Shown: one piece after another, positions 1 through 5,077 of the stretch | Position numbering within the stretch: the stretch's first letter is position 1 | How the letters are laid out: each line of letters begins with the position of its first letter | Assembly (NCBI GenBank): GCA_038826135.1 | Contig: JAWBON010000077.1 | Span: 1 to 5,388 of the forward strand | Direction: 5' to 3' | DNA length: 5,388 nt | Source of the DNA: Candidatus Odinarchaeota archaeon | Lineage (GTDB): Archaea; Asgardarchaeota; Odinarchaeia; Odinarchaeales; Odinarchaeaceae | Translations under genes and position numbers: made by a program | The notes under the pieces: model-generated | The model's input: only the letters and a program-made list of their open reading frames with translations | Told to the model about the DNA's origin: nothing | Databases searched by the model: none

Positions 1-785
1 ATTGTTATTATCCTCCCTATGTCAACCGGCTTGGGGATTTGACCGGTCAACTCTTTTACATCTAAGGGTTTTAAAGCTACTATAACAATGTTTTCCGCTT
101 TACTGCGTGTTATTATCTCCAACGCTTTAAGTTCGCCAACTATTCTACCTTTATTAAGGCCTACAACAATATGGGGGCTTACATCCAAGCCGGCTTTTGT
201 TAACGCTTTCAACGCTTTTTCAAAATCCCCGGGTTTCTTATCTAAATGATAGATTTCTCTTATAGTCTCCGTGTCACCTATTATGTCAATCATAGCGGAT
301 TCAACACCAGCCTCTTTTAACGCTTTAGCGGTAGAGTAATCTATCAAACCAGTGTGAACCGCTATCTTCATCCCTAGGTGTCTGTGAAGCTCGCCGATAG
401 CGTTTATAAAAGGAGTCAACGGCACCGCCCCGTTCATGTCAGAGCCGCCGCTTATTAAAAGACCTCTAGCCCCCTTCTTAAACAAATTTTTCCCAAGTTT
501 TAAAAGCTCTTCCGGAGTGGTGGCACTGTGCATAGACTCTAAAAGCCTTCCTTTACAATGCTCACACATCAACAGGCATCTTCTACCTGTAACTGAAACA
601 GACTGGAAGACCCCTTCCCCGTTTTTCTCAAATCCCTCAGTATCATATTTTAATATGCTGGGAGCGTAAAAATTTATAACTTCTTCATGGCATTCTCGTG
701 TCAGCCTCCAACCCCGCTCCAGGTATTCACCGTAATCCCTAGGAGAGCTGTTAAATATTCTCTGCGCTTCTTTTTCAAAACTCAT
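1..785 (-). CDS. lipS2: Radical SAM protein, LipS2-type subunit of the two-component (LipS1/LipS2) lipoyl synthase; 3'-partial, runs off the left edge
   Basis: Manual translation of the reverse strand from ATG at 785 gives 261 codons without a stop to the window edge: MSFEKEAQRIF...INFYAPS...FQSVSVTGRRCLLMCEHCKGRLLESM...GLLISGGSDMNGAVPL...IAVHTGLID...AMIDIIGD.ETIREIYHL...VSPHIVVGL..G.IVGE.KALEII... The CX3CX2C motif is C70/C74/C77 (nt 578-555). The combination S(V/L)TGxxCxLxCxHC, ISGG, HTG, DxxG and PHIxxGL matches my recollection of the Thermococcus kodakarensis TK2248/LipS2 family. The C-terminal GC(M/A)R and CC motifs reported for LipS2 would lie beyond the window. The divergent lipoate ligase supports the call. 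Confidence 0.8.
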   Translation of the reverse strand, partial: MSFEKEAQRIFNSSPRDYGEYLERGWRLTRECHEEVINFYAPSILKYDTEGFEKNGEGVFQSVSVTGRRCLLMCEHCKGRLLESMHSATTPEELLKLGKNLFKKGARGLLISGGSDMNGAVPLTPFINAIGELHRHLGMKIAVHTGLIDYSTAKALKEAGVESAMIDIIGDTETIREIYHLDKKPGDFEKALKALTKAGLDVSPHIVVGLNKGRIVGELKALEIITRSKAENIVIVALKPLDVKELTGQIPKPVDIGRIIT

Positions 786-872
786 ATTTTAACACTAGAA
801 AATTACAAGCCTGTTTTAATATTTAAAAATAGTTTTATATATTGTGTTTTTAAACTTGATAACGATCTTGAA
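786..872. promoter_or_regulatory. Divergent archaeal promoter region shared by lipS2 and the lipoate ligase gene
   Basis: 87-bp AT-rich gap between head-to-head ATGs (785 on -, 873 on +). The plus strand has TTTATATA at 834-841 preceded by an A-run. The minus strand has TTTTTAAA at 829-822 preceded by AAAAC. Each box lies 32-37 nt from its ATG. No Shine-Dalgarno is visible for either gene, implying short-leader or leaderless transcripts. Confidence 0.55.
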
Positions 873-2435
873 ATGGAAACTTGGAGAGTTGTTGACACCG
901 GTCTTCTCACAGGCGCTGAAAACATTACATATGATCGAGTTATCTTAGACGCTCGAGCGGAGGGTTTGGTTCCTAATACCTTCCGTTTTCTAAGATTTAA
1001 TCCACCGGTAGCGCTAGTAGGATATCACCAATCAATTGAACAGGAGATTCGAATCTCTTACTGTATAGAAAATAATATTGACATTAACCGGCGGATAACC
1101 GGTGGCGGTGCAATATACTTCAGCCCGGAGCATCTTGGCTGGGAGGTTTTCGCTCAACTGGATGGGGATAGATTCCCGTATAAGGTTGACCTGCTTTATA
1201 AACGGCTTTGCAATGCAGCTGTTAAAGGCCTGCGTAAACTCGGCTTGAACGCTCGTTTCAGACCTAAAAACGATATTGAAATAGGGCATCGTAAAATAAG
1301 TGGAACAGGCGGAACCAGCAACGGCGGAGCCTTCATGTTTCAAGGCACGCTCCTTGTAGATCTAGATATTAATAAAATGCTTAGAGCGTTAAGAGTCCCT
1401 GTTAAAAAACTATCTGATAAAGAAATAGACAGTCTTAAAGACCGTGTTACAACTATAAAATGGGAGCTAGGATATATTCCCTCCTACGCTCAAATAAAGG
1501 AGGCTATTTTAGAAGGCTTCAGTGAAGAGTTTAAAATCGTTTTTGAAGAGCAAGATCTTACAGAGTTTGAGAGAAAAGAGTTTTTAGATAAACTCCCCTA
1601 CTTCAACTCAAAGGACTGGGTTTACGGGATAAGATCCGCTGGCAGTCTTGAAAACTCTCTTTTCACGCTTAGAAAAACCCCCGGCGGGCTTGTTAAACTA
1701 GCTTTATCCGTGGATGTTGAATTAAACTCGATAACGTCAGCTTTCATCACAGGCGATTTCTTCGCATACCCCCCAGGAGTCATATACGATTTCGAAGCCG
1801 GTTTAAAACACATCCACCTAGACATGAAAGAAATAAATAATGTGTTAAAAAAACTGGGTGAACGTGACTTTCAAATTCCCGGCGTGAAGTTAAACGATTT
1901 TCGAAGCCTGTTTCAAGAAGCTGTTGAAAGAGTAAAATACACACGTTACGGGCTTACACTCAGCGAAATAAATAATATCTTTCTCGTAAACAGAAAACTC
2001 GACTATTTTATCGATCACGGTGTTGACACGCTTCTTCTACCTTACTGTTCGAAGCTTCTCTCCTGTAAGTTCCGACACTCGGAGGGTTGTACAATATGCG
2101 AACAATGTTCTGTAGGGGAAGGCTATAAACTCGCTTTAAAATATAATCTGAAACCTATAACAATAGTTAACTACGAGCACCTAGAGGAAAACCTGGCGGA
2201 ACTAGATAAAGCAGCCTCTAAAGGATATATAGGCTGCTGCTGCGAGCAATTCTATGAAAAGCATCAACCAGACTTTGAGAAATTTAAAACCCCAGGCCTC
2301 CTTATCAACATAGAGCAGACCACATGCTATGATCTGGGTCTTGAAAAGGAAGCCTATAAGGGCAGATTTGAAAGCCAAACCTCTATTAACACCCCGCTCT
2401 TGCAAAAAATCCTCGGATTAATATTTAAAAACTAA
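873..2435 (+). CDS. lplA: Lipoate/octanoate-protein ligase: LplA catalytic domain + LplB-like (Lip_prot_lig_C) domain + C-terminal Cys-rich DUF116-like domain, 520 aa
   Basis: From ATG 873: METWRVVDTG...N...D (typical LplA N-terminus), FLRF.PP.ALVGYHQ, RRITGGGAIY (nt ~1089-1118), PKNDIEIG.RKISGTGG with the catalytic Lys at nt 1293, and FQGTLL. The accessory domain KTPGGLVK...FITGDFFAYP spans nt ~1674-1930. The tail (nt ~2019-2432) has 9 Cys: LLLPYCSK..SC..R...CTICEQC...IGCCC...TCYDLG. The ORF-track start at 687 would add 62 non-homologous residues overlapping the lipS2 gene. Confidence 0.9.
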   Translation: METWRVVDTGLLTGAENITYDRVILDARAEGLVPNTFRFLRFNPPVALVGYHQSIEQEIRISYCIENNIDINRRITGGGAIYFSPEHLGWEVFAQLDGDRFPYKVDLLYKRLCNAAVKGLRKLGLNARFRPKNDIEIGHRKISGTGGTSNGGAFMFQGTLLVDLDINKMLRALRVPVKKLSDKEIDSLKDRVTTIKWELGYIPSYAQIKEAILEGFSEEFKIVFEEQDLTEFERKEFLDKLPYFNSKDWVYGIRSAGSLENSLFTLRKTPGGLVKLALSVDVELNSITSAFITGDFFAYPPGVIYDFEAGLKHIHLDMKEINNVLKKLGERDFQIPGVKLNDFRSLFQEAVERVKYTRYGLTLSEINNIFLVNRKLDYFIDHGVDTLLLPYCSKLLSCKFRHSEGCTICEQCSVGEGYKLALKYNLKPITIVNYEHLEENLAELDKAASKGYIGCCCEQFYEKHQPDFEKFKTPGLLINIEQTTCYDLGLEKEAYKGRFESQTSINTPLLQKILGLIFKN

Positions 2436-2539: not shown

Positions 2540-4126
2540 ATGAGCAGGATAATATTAACCGCTGATGAAACACTTATGACAGAGTACGGCGGGGCATCTT
2601 TTCTAGGCTTCATACTATGCGCTCCAAGACGGATTCTCCCCAATTTTCTGATAAAATATGTAATATGCCCGCATCCCAGAATGAGGGACGGCGAGGTTTT
2701 AGCCCCACCATACTCCCTACGAAAAGTTGAAGCCTCACTTGTTCAGAACGGGTACAGTAGAGAAGATATTAAGTTCATTCACCCTTCTAAATTGAATGAA
2801 TCAGTCTCCGAGAAAACTAGAATAATCGGTATAGACGTGGTTGACCCTATGGGGCGCGGCCCTGTCTCATGGACTTTACGCCACCTTCTAGGCGGCGGTA
2901 AACCGGCAACACAACTTGCTTTTCTCTCATTGATGAGAAGGATTAAGCCGCTTAAAGAAAAATATGGTTTCAAAGTGATTTTAGGCGGCCCTGGAGCTTG
3001 GCAGGTTACTGATAAAGAAGCTGAAACGCTAGGCATCGATGTCAGATATTACGGTCAAGCTGAGTTAACACTCCCCCAGGTAGTGGATAAACTCATCCGC
3101 GGCGAGCAAGTTCCACCAGTGGTTAAAGCCGCGCCGCCTAAACCAGAACAAGTATACCCGATACTCGGACCTGCCAGATGCGGGTTCGTTCAGATAACTG
3201 AAGGATGCGGTAGAGGCTGCAGATTCTGCGGTCCAACTCAGGTGCCTTGGAGAAGCATCCCCCTAGACATAATAGAGAAAGAAGCCAGGTTAAGCATCGC
3301 CGCCGGGGAGAGAAACCTATATCTTCTAAGCGAAGACTGGTTAAGATACGGGTCCAGCAGCTTCCGAGAGCTTAACATAAACGCATTACTGAAAATGCTG
3401 CAAACTCTCAGAAGCATACCCGGAGTGGATAAAATAGTTTCAACACATGTAAACTTCAGCACAATGAAGCTTGCAGGCGTAAAACAAGTGGAAGAATTAA
3501 ACTATTACATGGGAGTCAACGAAGATGAACCATGGATCGGCCCTCAAATAGGTTTAGAAACAGGCAGCCCCCGCCTACTTGAAAAATACATGCGCGGAAA
3601 AGTTCTACCATATACACCTCAAGAATGGCATGAAGTAGTGGTTGAAGCCTGTCAAATCCTTAAAGACGTCTACTGGTATCCCTGCATAACAATGATAACA
3701 GGATTACCGGAAGAAACCGATGATGATATAATGCTTACACTAGAACTTCTAGACGATCTTAAAGGAACACCCGCCTGGTTCTTCCCGTTATTCTTCATAC
3801 CCATAGGAACGAGCGCTCTCAGCCGTCAAGAATTCTTTAAAACATATCTTATGAATGAAGCCCGCTGGGAGCTTGTAACCAGAAGCTGGAAACTCAGCGC
3901 AGCATTTGCCTTAAAATATATTAAGCATGTAACATCAGGAGCTAAAATGTCTTTAACACAAATCTTCTTAAACAAGCTTTTCTCCAGACTATCCGATGAA
4001 ACCCTGAGATTCATAGATAAAATCGGTAGCCAACCAGCACAAATGTTAACAATGCTTAAAAACGTGGATCTCACAAAACCGGGAAAACCGTTAATGAAAG
4101 CTTTAGTATCAATAATCGCTAGGTAA
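2540..4126 (+). CDS. Cobalamin (B12)-binding domain radical SAM protein (COG1032-like), substrate unknown, 528 aa
   Basis: Long ORF with an RBS. The N-terminal region has PYSLRKVEASL, RIIGIDVVDPMG.GP, KVILGGPGAWQ and YGQAE (equivalent to the GEGE motif of B12-binding domains). The radical SAM motif is ITEGCGRGCRFC (C223/C227/C230, nt 3206-3229), followed by SEDWLRYG, IGLETGSPRLL and ITGLPEET core motifs. No DxHxxG motif is seen. Confidence 0.85.
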   Translation: MSRIILTADETLMTEYGGASFLGFILCAPRRILPNFLIKYVICPHPRMRDGEVLAPPYSLRKVEASLVQNGYSREDIKFIHPSKLNESVSEKTRIIGIDVVDPMGRGPVSWTLRHLLGGGKPATQLAFLSLMRRIKPLKEKYGFKVILGGPGAWQVTDKEAETLGIDVRYYGQAELTLPQVVDKLIRGEQVPPVVKAAPPKPEQVYPILGPARCGFVQITEGCGRGCRFCGPTQVPWRSIPLDIIEKEARLSIAAGERNLYLLSEDWLRYGSSSFRELNINALLKMLQTLRSIPGVDKIVSTHVNFSTMKLAGVKQVEELNYYMGVNEDEPWIGPQIGLETGSPRLLEKYMRGKVLPYTPQEWHEVVVEACQILKDVYWYPCITMITGLPEETDDDIMLTLELLDDLKGTPAWFFPLFFIPIGTSALSRQEFFKTYLMNEARWELVTRSWKLSAAFALKYIKHVTSGAKMSLTQIFLNKLFSRLSDETLRFIDKIGSQPAQMLTMLKNVDLTKPGKPLMKALVSIIAR

Positions 4127-4384: not shown

Positions 4385-5077
4385 ATGGATTATGAGATAA
4401 AATATAGTCCCTCATATTCAATGCTTGTAGTTAAACTTAAACCTGATGAGACAATAACCGCTGAAGCTGGTGCGATGACATATATGACTCCAAATTTAGA
4501 GATTAAAACAAGAAAAAGAGAGGAGAGCATCTTAAAATCTCTTAAAGTAGCTATACTCGGGCAGCAATCCTTCTTTGTTAATGATTATACTGCCCGGGGA
4601 GGACCAGGTGAAATAGGTTTAGTCTCAGCGCCTTTAGGGGATATCGCTAAATTAGACGTGAATGAAAAAAATGGCTACATCATTCAGCAATCCGCTTATA
4701 TAGCTTCAACACCAGGAATAGAATTAGATACAAAATGGCAGGGATTTGTTAAAGGAATCTTCGGTCAAAGCCTCTTCATGATCAAAGTGGAGGGAGAAGG
4801 TTACGTTTTTCTAAACAGTTTCGGAGCTCTAGATAAACATGTTCTAAAACCTGGTGAAAGCCTTATAGTAGATAACTATCATCTAGTAGCATTTAGTAGT
4901 TCATGCAATTATAATGTTAAAAAATTCGGTGGCTTAAAATCGACTATACTAGGAGGAGAAGGCCTAGTCACGGAGATAAAGGGACCAGGGGAAGTATATG
5001 TTCAAACAAAAAATCTTAGAGAATTTATTGAATGGCTCTGGACTCTAATAGGCCCAAGAATCAGCAGAGCGCGATAA
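4385..5077 (+). CDS. AIM24 / TIGR00266 family protein (DUF124, TRAP-like beta fold), 230 aa
   Basis: Family-typical pattern: YEIKYSPSYSMLVVKLKPDETITAEAGAMTYM, QSFFVNDYTA..GPGEIGLV..PLGDI, IQQSAYIAS..GIELDTKW.G, LFMIKVEGEG.VFL.SFGAL, L.PGE.LIVD..HLVAF, LGGEGLV....GPGEVYVQTKN. Strong RBS upstream. Confidence 0.9.
   Translation: MDYEIKYSPSYSMLVVKLKPDETITAEAGAMTYMTPNLEIKTRKREESILKSLKVAILGQQSFFVNDYTARGGPGEIGLVSAPLGDIAKLDVNEKNGYIIQQSAYIASTPGIELDTKWQGFVKGIFGQSLFMIKVEGEGYVFLNSFGALDKHVLKPGESLIVDNYHLVAFSSSCNYNVKKFGGLKSTILGGEGLVTEIKGPGEVYVQTKNLREFIEWLWTLIGPRISRAR

Follow-up and report, generated by a model that had tools for sequence, protein, structure and literature searches.

A divergent LipS1-type gene and a DUF116-fused lipoate ligase as the probable half of a second, split lipoate-assembly set in an Odinarchaeum genome

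We have analysed a 5,388 nt stretch of the Candidatus Odinarchaeota assembly GCA_038826135.1 (contig JAWBON010000077.1, here C77, the whole of which is referred to as the window), in which a radical S-adenosylmethionine (SAM) gene and a lipoate/octanoate-protein ligase gene, two of the four genes present, stand head-to-head. The radical SAM gene, here termed lipS1', is assigned by its sequence to the LipS1 type and not to LipS2, and the pair very probably constitutes one half of a second, split LipA-independent set (lipS2', lipS1', lpl(AB)-DUF116 and a lipT-like gene) that exists beside a complete lipoate-assembly operon on another contig, C13. Many anaerobic bacteria and archaea carry the four-gene module in compact form; in Odinarchaeum, the genus to which this 1.26 Mb genome (105 contigs, 93% complete) belongs, it is split. 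Comparisons were made with three genomes of the same genus, G001, G002 (closed) and G003, and with 80 loci from species-level genomes that encode a ligase-DUF116 fusion, in which all open reading frames of the loci were clustered to define recurrent neighbours.

Results

Assignment of the radical SAM gene to LipS1

The divergent pair occupies the following positions.

3..785, minus strand: lipS1', the first 261 of 327 codons; matches NCBIfam LipS1 and Pfam Radical_SAM; open at the left end of the window
786..872, no strand: 87 bp AT-rich spacer between the divergent start codons, read directly from the sequence
873..2435, plus strand: lipoate/octanoate-protein ligase of Lpl(AB) architecture with a C-terminal DUF116, 520 codons; Pfam LplA-B_cat, Lip_prot_lig_C and DUF116
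915..1520, plus strand: LplA/LipB-fold catalytic domain with the lysine motif RKISGTGG; PF21948, E 6.6e-45
1680..1910, plus strand: LplB-type accessory domain, an in-frame fusion; PF10437, E 1e-5; NCBIfam LplB, E 6.3e-9
1920..2432, plus strand: DUF116 domain with eight invariant cysteines; PF01976, E 2.5e-8

The lipS1' frame starts with an ATG at 785 and continues for 261 codons to the left window end with no stop. Over these residues the product matched the NCBIfam LipS1 model NF053742 (E 1.2e-49, 169 bits, profile positions 7-194) and no other lipoyl-synthase model, as the LipS2 model NF053743 gave no match at E<=0.01. In a maximum-likelihood tree of LipS1 and LipS2 sequences, with branch support from the Shimodaira-Hasegawa-like approximate likelihood ratio test (SH-aLRT), the two families are separated with a support of 100 and the lipS1' product is found on the LipS1 side, where it forms a clade with its three same-genus orthologues (support 100) that lies outside the clade of operon-type Asgard LipS1 (97). 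Both the profile scores and the tree contradict the initial annotation, in which this gene was described as LipS2-like.

The motifs point in the same direction. The radical SAM core CX3CX2C corresponds to C70-x3-C74-x2-C77 (CLLMCEHC) and is invariant in an alignment of 78 LipS1-type sequences, as are H144 and H205, the latter fitting by its spacing to H159 of TK2109, the LipS1 of Thermococcus kodakarensis; every residue that is conserved in at least 93% of the alignment, C276 and C323/C324 among them, is kept in lipS1'. Neti et al. reported that C230, C276 and C277, the last two as a CC pair, are required for the auxiliary cluster of LipS1, with a conserved histidine (TK2109 H159) as the probable fourth ligand, and that the auxiliary ligands of LipS2 are C85, C276 and C279, the latter two as CxxC (PMC9585515). 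In lipS1' the auxiliary-cluster cysteines are C276 in GCAR and C323/C324 in YCC, all three encoded on the continuation of the gene on contig C100, their equivalence to TK2109 C230, C276 and C277 being taken from spacing and not from direct alignment. The C-terminus thus has CC, not CxxC, and the genuine LipS2 on C13 (333 bits) bears GCPGCNRP. Initially, GC(M/A)R and CC had been proposed as a means of recognising LipS2 and the GCPxCNRP/CxxC motif had been attributed to LipS1; the former pair is indeed present but comprises the LipS1 ligands, while the latter belongs to LipS2, so that the two motif sets had been exchanged. A search of PDB sequences found no solved structure of LipS1 or LipS2, the best matches to the C13 LipS1 being PylB and BioB. 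As a consequence for annotation, the gene is to be named lipS1-type, not lipS2.

Completion of lipS1' and its left flank

In reverse complement, positions 1-147 of the window and positions 1-147 of C100 coincide at 146 of 147 nt, the sole mismatch being a synonymous C/T difference (GAC/GAT) that probably reflects strain microdiversity which broke the assembly. Joining the contigs completes a protein of 327 residues that ends in ...LLGCARPGG...FIPYCCSFI, the last 66 codons residing on C100, and the C100 piece itself matches LipS1 profile positions 161-268 with 53 bits. The gene order in the closed genome G002, in which a leftward Rieske gene and leftward lipS1' are followed by the rightward ligase and a rightward 528-codon radical SAM gene, with AIM24 ∼1.4 kb further on, is identical and provides independent support for the C77/C100 join.

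On C100 the 3' side of lipS1' is occupied by a gene for a 109-residue Rieske [2Fe-2S] ferredoxin (431-760), followed by unrelated genes, and the adjacency of the Rieske gene and lipS1' is kept within the genus. The ferredoxin is a possible candidate for the electron donor of the radical SAM enzyme. The left flank, both on C100 and in closed G002, contains no lipS2, no second lipS1 and no carrier gene. The prediction that the partners of the pair would be located just left of the window therefore failed, as what is found there is the C-terminus of lipS1' itself, the ferredoxin and the unrelated genes.

The head-to-head arrangement itself, as originally described, is borne out by start codons at 785 and 873 separated by the AT-rich spacer. 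The ligase start is placed at the ATG at 873, the N-terminus METWRV being conserved in an alignment with 13 homologues. The spacer contains two TATA-like runs, tttaaaaata and ttttatatat, and is predicted to be a probable shared promoter region.

The ligase and its DUF116 domain

The catalytic domain of the ligase is matched not only by PF21948 but by the NCBIfam lipoyltrans model (E 1.9e-47) and by lipoate ligases in the PDB (E 3e-27 to 1e-12), and 14 diverse homologues share residues R141, K142, I143, S144, G145, T146, G147 and G148 without variation. In ligases of the Lpl(AB) type an LplB-type accessory domain is needed for the adenylation step. The protein scores below the curated cut-offs of two models, with 161.9 bits for TIGR00545 (cut-off 280) and 110.7 bits for the LplAB model (cut-off 550), as does the LplA encoded on C13, and its sequence places it in a diverged subfamily. 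A protein attributed in its source record to Candidatus Odinarchaeum yellowstonii shares 80% identity with it, and full-length fusions in many phyla share 45-55%. Full-length ligase-DUF116 fusions at 43-51% identity occur in at least 80 species-level genomes from more than 10 phyla, including Chloroflexota, Thermodesulfobacteriota, Bacillota, Nitrospirota, Actinomycetota, Thermoplasmatota, Bathyarchaeia, Nitrososphaerota, Thermoproteota and several Asgard lineages.

The DUF116 cysteines follow the pattern C-x5-C-x7-C-x2-C-x2-C ... CC ... C, all eight are invariant in 37 sequences and they probably form a metal or Fe-S site. An AlphaFold model of the domain (predicted local distance difference test score 93.7) has a flavodoxin/Rossmann-like alpha/beta fold from which function is unreadable: Foldseek found nothing at E<=1e-3, the best VIA-align match (Z 7.3) was to designed proteins, and an ESM Atlas search returned only DUF116 clusters, every score being below 0.9. 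Stand-alone DUF116 proteins (PF01976) of methanogens and Bacillota belong to the same cysteine-rich family but are free-standing, uncharacterised proteins of ∼140-200 residues, whereas the window domain forms the C-terminal part of an otherwise complete lipoate ligase. A literature search found no paper that combines DUF116 with a lipoate ligase, the queries returning mostly DUF1162/VPS13 noise.

Lipoate genes elsewhere in the genome

The complete machinery on C13 is a compact operon, lipS2 (333 bits)-lplA-lplB-lipS1 (289 bits), and its LipS2 is the single one found in this assembly. Topoisomerase VI-like genes are also present on this contig and, together with the 80% identity of the ligase to the Candidatus Odinarchaeum yellowstonii protein, assign the organism to this Asgard genus. 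This gene order was described as typical for Archaea by Tanabe et al. 2023 (PMC10332631), and the C13 operon, with four genes over or near the cut-offs, shares its pathway logic with the window pair. The two differ in layout, the operon type having a split ligase that lacks DUF116 and co-directional, abutting genes, while the window pair is divergent with a fused ligase. The C13 LipS1 is ∼33% identical (tblastn) to the same-genus orthologues of lipS1'.

No LipA was found in the genome (best score 15.6 bits against a cut-off of 310), nor any LipB or LipM; only two proteins of the LplA/LipB fold are encoded and both are ligases. The initial proposal of a LipA-independent route based on LipS1, LipS2 and a ligase therefore stands. 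So does its expectation of a lipoyl carrier elsewhere in the genome, in that two GcvH-family genes were detected, one on C5, 4.5 kb from gcvT and with the lysine context ESVKAT, the other an orphan on C1 (G000:C1:3323-3751) with the context ETGKW. The C1 carrier has no cysteines and a net charge of 0, versus -9 for the C5 GcvH. In addition to gcvT, gcvP is present on C60. A search of the genome with the lipoyl-domain model PF00364 matched only the C5 GcvH, and no 2-oxoacid dehydrogenase E2 was found. The anticipated partners of the pair do in part exist elsewhere, as a LipS2 and a second LipS1 are located on C13, but within a separate, complete operon that possesses its own split LplA/LplB. 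The window locus is thus not the only lipoate machinery of this organism.

A four-gene module and its split in Odinarchaeum

In the 80 ligase-DUF116 loci the most frequent neighbour is a flavin adenine dinucleotide (FAD) protein of the geranylgeranyl-reductase family (65 loci), usually encoded directly after the ligase with a median gap of 15 bp; the name LipT-like reflects no more than its location and family. LipS2 homologues were observed in 60/80 loci, LipS1 homologues in 56/80 and GcvH-like genes, within 10 kb of the ligase, in 21/80; genes for CCG-domain (HdrD/HdrB-like), GlcD-like, HdrA-like and DsrE-like proteins also recur. The linked LipS1 proteins resemble the window protein (∼37-49% identity, 180-275 bits) more than they do the LipS1 of C13 (28-39%, ∼145-215 bits). 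Ligase, LipS1, LipS2 and FAD oxidoreductase occur together in most of the 80 loci, are split in the same-genus genomes and are represented in the assembly under study by the ligase and lipS1' only.

In all three same-genus genomes a second LipS2 gene (lipS2', 250-259 bits) abuts the lipT-like gene at a distance from the ligase, 33 kb in G002 (lipS2' 259 bits) and 28 kb in G001, and on a separate contig in G003. The genes which flank lipS2'-lipT in these relatives have orthologues on C79, a contig that ends inside an HDAC-like (histone deacetylase-like) gene (4799-5037), and in G002 this gene is the one immediately before lipS2'. C79 therefore terminates at the lipS2'-lipT site, the absence of these two genes coincides with an assembly break and does not demonstrate loss, and the missing lipS2' probably falls within the gap.

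Trios of genes, in which a GlcD-like FAD oxidase and an Fe-S protein with a CCG domain are encoded along with a GcvH-like protein, were seen ∼1-5 kb from the ligase in five of the surveyed loci (L051, L072, L046, L044 and L047), whose hosts are Nitrososphaeria, Bathyarchaeia, Desulfosarcina and an actinomycete. The trios may point to a redox system of anaerobes that depends on lipoate and is so far uncharacterised.

The remaining genes of the window lie to the right of the ligase.

2540..4126, plus strand: 528-codon radical SAM gene; weak matches to TIGR04013 and MiaB-like models
4385..5077: AIM24/TIGR00266 family gene; AIM24/TIGR00266 match, E 2e-65

The 528-codon gene starts 104 bp 3' of the ligase on the same strand, has weak B12-binding-like as well as MiaB-like matches and recurs in syntenic position, at 88-89% identity, in all three same-genus genomes. 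Neither it (E<=1e-5) nor AIM24 had a tblastn match in the 80 ligase-DUF116 loci, and we classify the 528-codon gene from these comparisons as a neighbour specific to the genus that is not part of the conserved module. The idea that it substitutes for LipS2 was rejected, as no copy was found at the ligase loci of other lineages and the sister genomes possess a true lipS2'. The position of the AIM24/TIGR00266 gene is conserved in the genus, with no evident link to lipoylation.

Discussion

The window pair belongs to a known system and its orthologues have already been tabulated. For Odinarchaeia LCB-4, Tanabe et al. 2023 (Supplementary file 10) give an operon (LipS2 254, LplA, LplB, LipS1 264), a separate LipS2 (475) and an adjacent pair, MDVT01000007.1_1245, a LipS1 (357), and MDVT01000007.1_1246, an LplA (residues 2:511, 1566 nt), which are the orthologues of lipS1' and the window ligase. 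The models used in that study score the LCB-4 orthologues of the window set (LipS1 357, LipS2 475) above the operon set (264, 254), and genomes with paralogues were left out of its trees (PMC10332631). The points of interest are the ligase-DUF116 fusion, which is apparently undescribed, and the duplication of the pathway.

Comparison with the published features of T. kodakarensis LipS1 (TK2109) and LipS2 (TK2248) (PMC9585515) indicates that the window protein is likewise a BioB-like radical SAM protein with CX3CX2C, and it shares with LipS1 of that organism the GCxR cysteine, the C-terminal CC and the invariant histidines, in two organisms that both lack LipA. It differs in being a paralogue outside the operon-linked Asgard LipS1 clade, scoring just below the NCBIfam cut-off, and in its linkage to a fused Lpl(AB)-DUF116 rather than to split LplA/LplB. 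The sHdr-LbpA clusters of sulfur oxidisers (PMC10332631, PMC6067878) have the same content, namely LipS1, a fused Lpl(AB), LipS2 and an FAD oxidoreductase beside the ligase, and the wider module resembles them further in that GcvH-like carriers and CCG/Hdr-like genes are frequently encoded close by. Several features set the two apart. Unlike in the sLpl(AB) clusters, the ligase bears an extra DUF116, a domain mentioned neither in these two papers nor in the available supplements of Tanabe et al. 2023; its hosts are mostly anaerobes (Chloroflexota, Thermodesulfobacteriota, Bathyarchaeia and Asgard archaea), not sulfur oxidisers; the carriers near ligase-DUF116 usually lack the paired cysteines of LbpA; and in Odinarchaeum the module is split in two places, unlike the bacterial sLpl(AB)-LipS1-LipS2-LipT clusters.

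By analogy with T. kodakarensis, in which LipS2 inserts sulfur at C8 before LipS1 inserts it at C6 (PMC9585515), we infer that the window ligase would catalyse ATP-dependent adenylation of octanoate or lipoate and transfer of the acyl group to the lysine of a GcvH-type carrier, that LipS2 would then add the C8 sulfur to yield 8-mercapto-octanoyl-lysine, and that LipS1' would add the sulfur at C6. A preference for octanoate, in line with the initial proposal, is conceivable. Electrons or sulfur may be supplied by LipT, the Rieske ferredoxin or DUF116.

Several observations weigh against this reading. The tree does not resolve the backbone among LipS1 lineages, and no clade of ligase-DUF116-linked LipS1 separate from the operon type was recovered; the named references TK2109, TK2248 and TK90_0641-0644 (Thioalkalivibrio) were not placed in this tree, the sequence set of which also lacked BioB. 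The full-length same-genus orthologues of lipS1' score 222-225 bits, slightly under the LipS1 cut-off of 230, and searches of this assembly recovered neither lipS2' nor lipT, so that the set is incomplete as assembled. The score just below the cut-off, together with a full standard set on C13 and the position of lipS1' in the genus, apart from lipS2' and in the neighbourhood of another radical SAM gene, could also be accounted for if lipS1' were a diverged paralogue that no longer makes lipoate and acts on another substrate, possibly with the 528-residue radical SAM protein. We consider this improbable, as the LipS1 cluster ligands and invariant residues are all retained, the subfamily occurs in operons with LipS2 and a lipoate ligase across phyla, the linked LipS1 is the only LipS1-type match in several ligase-DUF116 genomes, G005 for example, and the 528-residue protein has no counterpart in the surveyed loci outside the genus. 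Even less credible, to the point of being virtually discounted, is that the gene is a LipS2, the C8 insertase, with lipS1 and the carrier just beyond the left window end. A BioB-like radical SAM gene beside a lipoate ligase would suit LipS2 as well, but the profile match is to LipS1 only, the C-terminus has GCAR and CC instead of the GCPGCNRP CxxC, the tree separates the protein from LipS2 with full support, and a Rieske ferredoxin and unrelated genes lie to the left both here and in the closed relative. A second LipA-independent set, split in this genus, accounts for these observations and remains the reading that we favour.

Given such a set, there is the matter of which carrier each line would serve. 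It is conceivable, though we regard it as somewhat doubtful, that the lines are dedicated, the window set maturing the C1 carrier with its ETGKW motif and the C13 operon serving the C5 GcvH with ESVKAT. All but two of the 25 carriers near ligase-DUF116 that keep the lysine have it followed by W, F or Y, as in C1, and carriers near these ligases are 37-51% identical to C1 versus 31-44% to C5. Such lysine-aromatic carriers are often found beside GlcD-like FAD oxidases and CCG-domain (HdrD/HdrB-like) proteins, and according to a preprint surface charge is the basis on which two ligase families distinguish between GcvH and LbpA; C1 and C5 differ in net charge. However, the pairing is a statistical association: C1-type carriers (44-56% identical) are present in the related genomes G007, G012, G017 and G018, the ligases of which lack DUF116, C1 itself lacks the two cysteines typical of LbpA, and its gene is unlinked to any of the genes in question in this genome. 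A strict link between C1-type carriers and ligase-DUF116 was accordingly rejected as a rule. A broader and more speculative proposal, which we think rather unlikely as it stands, is that Lpl(AB)-DUF116, LipS1', LipS2' and LipT are a distinct second lipoylation line, widespread among anaerobic bacteria and archaea, Asgard archaea included, that would mature a separate class of lysine-aromatic carriers for GlcD-like/CCG enzymes and not for glycine cleavage. The eight-cysteine DUF116 would in this case bind one or more Fe-S clusters from which the LipS enzymes would receive electrons or sulfur with the carrier still docked.

The occurrence of two parallel sets and two GcvH-type carriers in an Odinarchaeum genome of ∼1.3-1.4 Mb suggests that the duplication is functional. 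The conserved ligase-DUF116 fusion marks one of two types of lipoate-assembly set and, should DUF116 be a source of electrons or sulfur, would have implications for the servicing of the sacrificial auxiliary clusters in lipoyl synthases.

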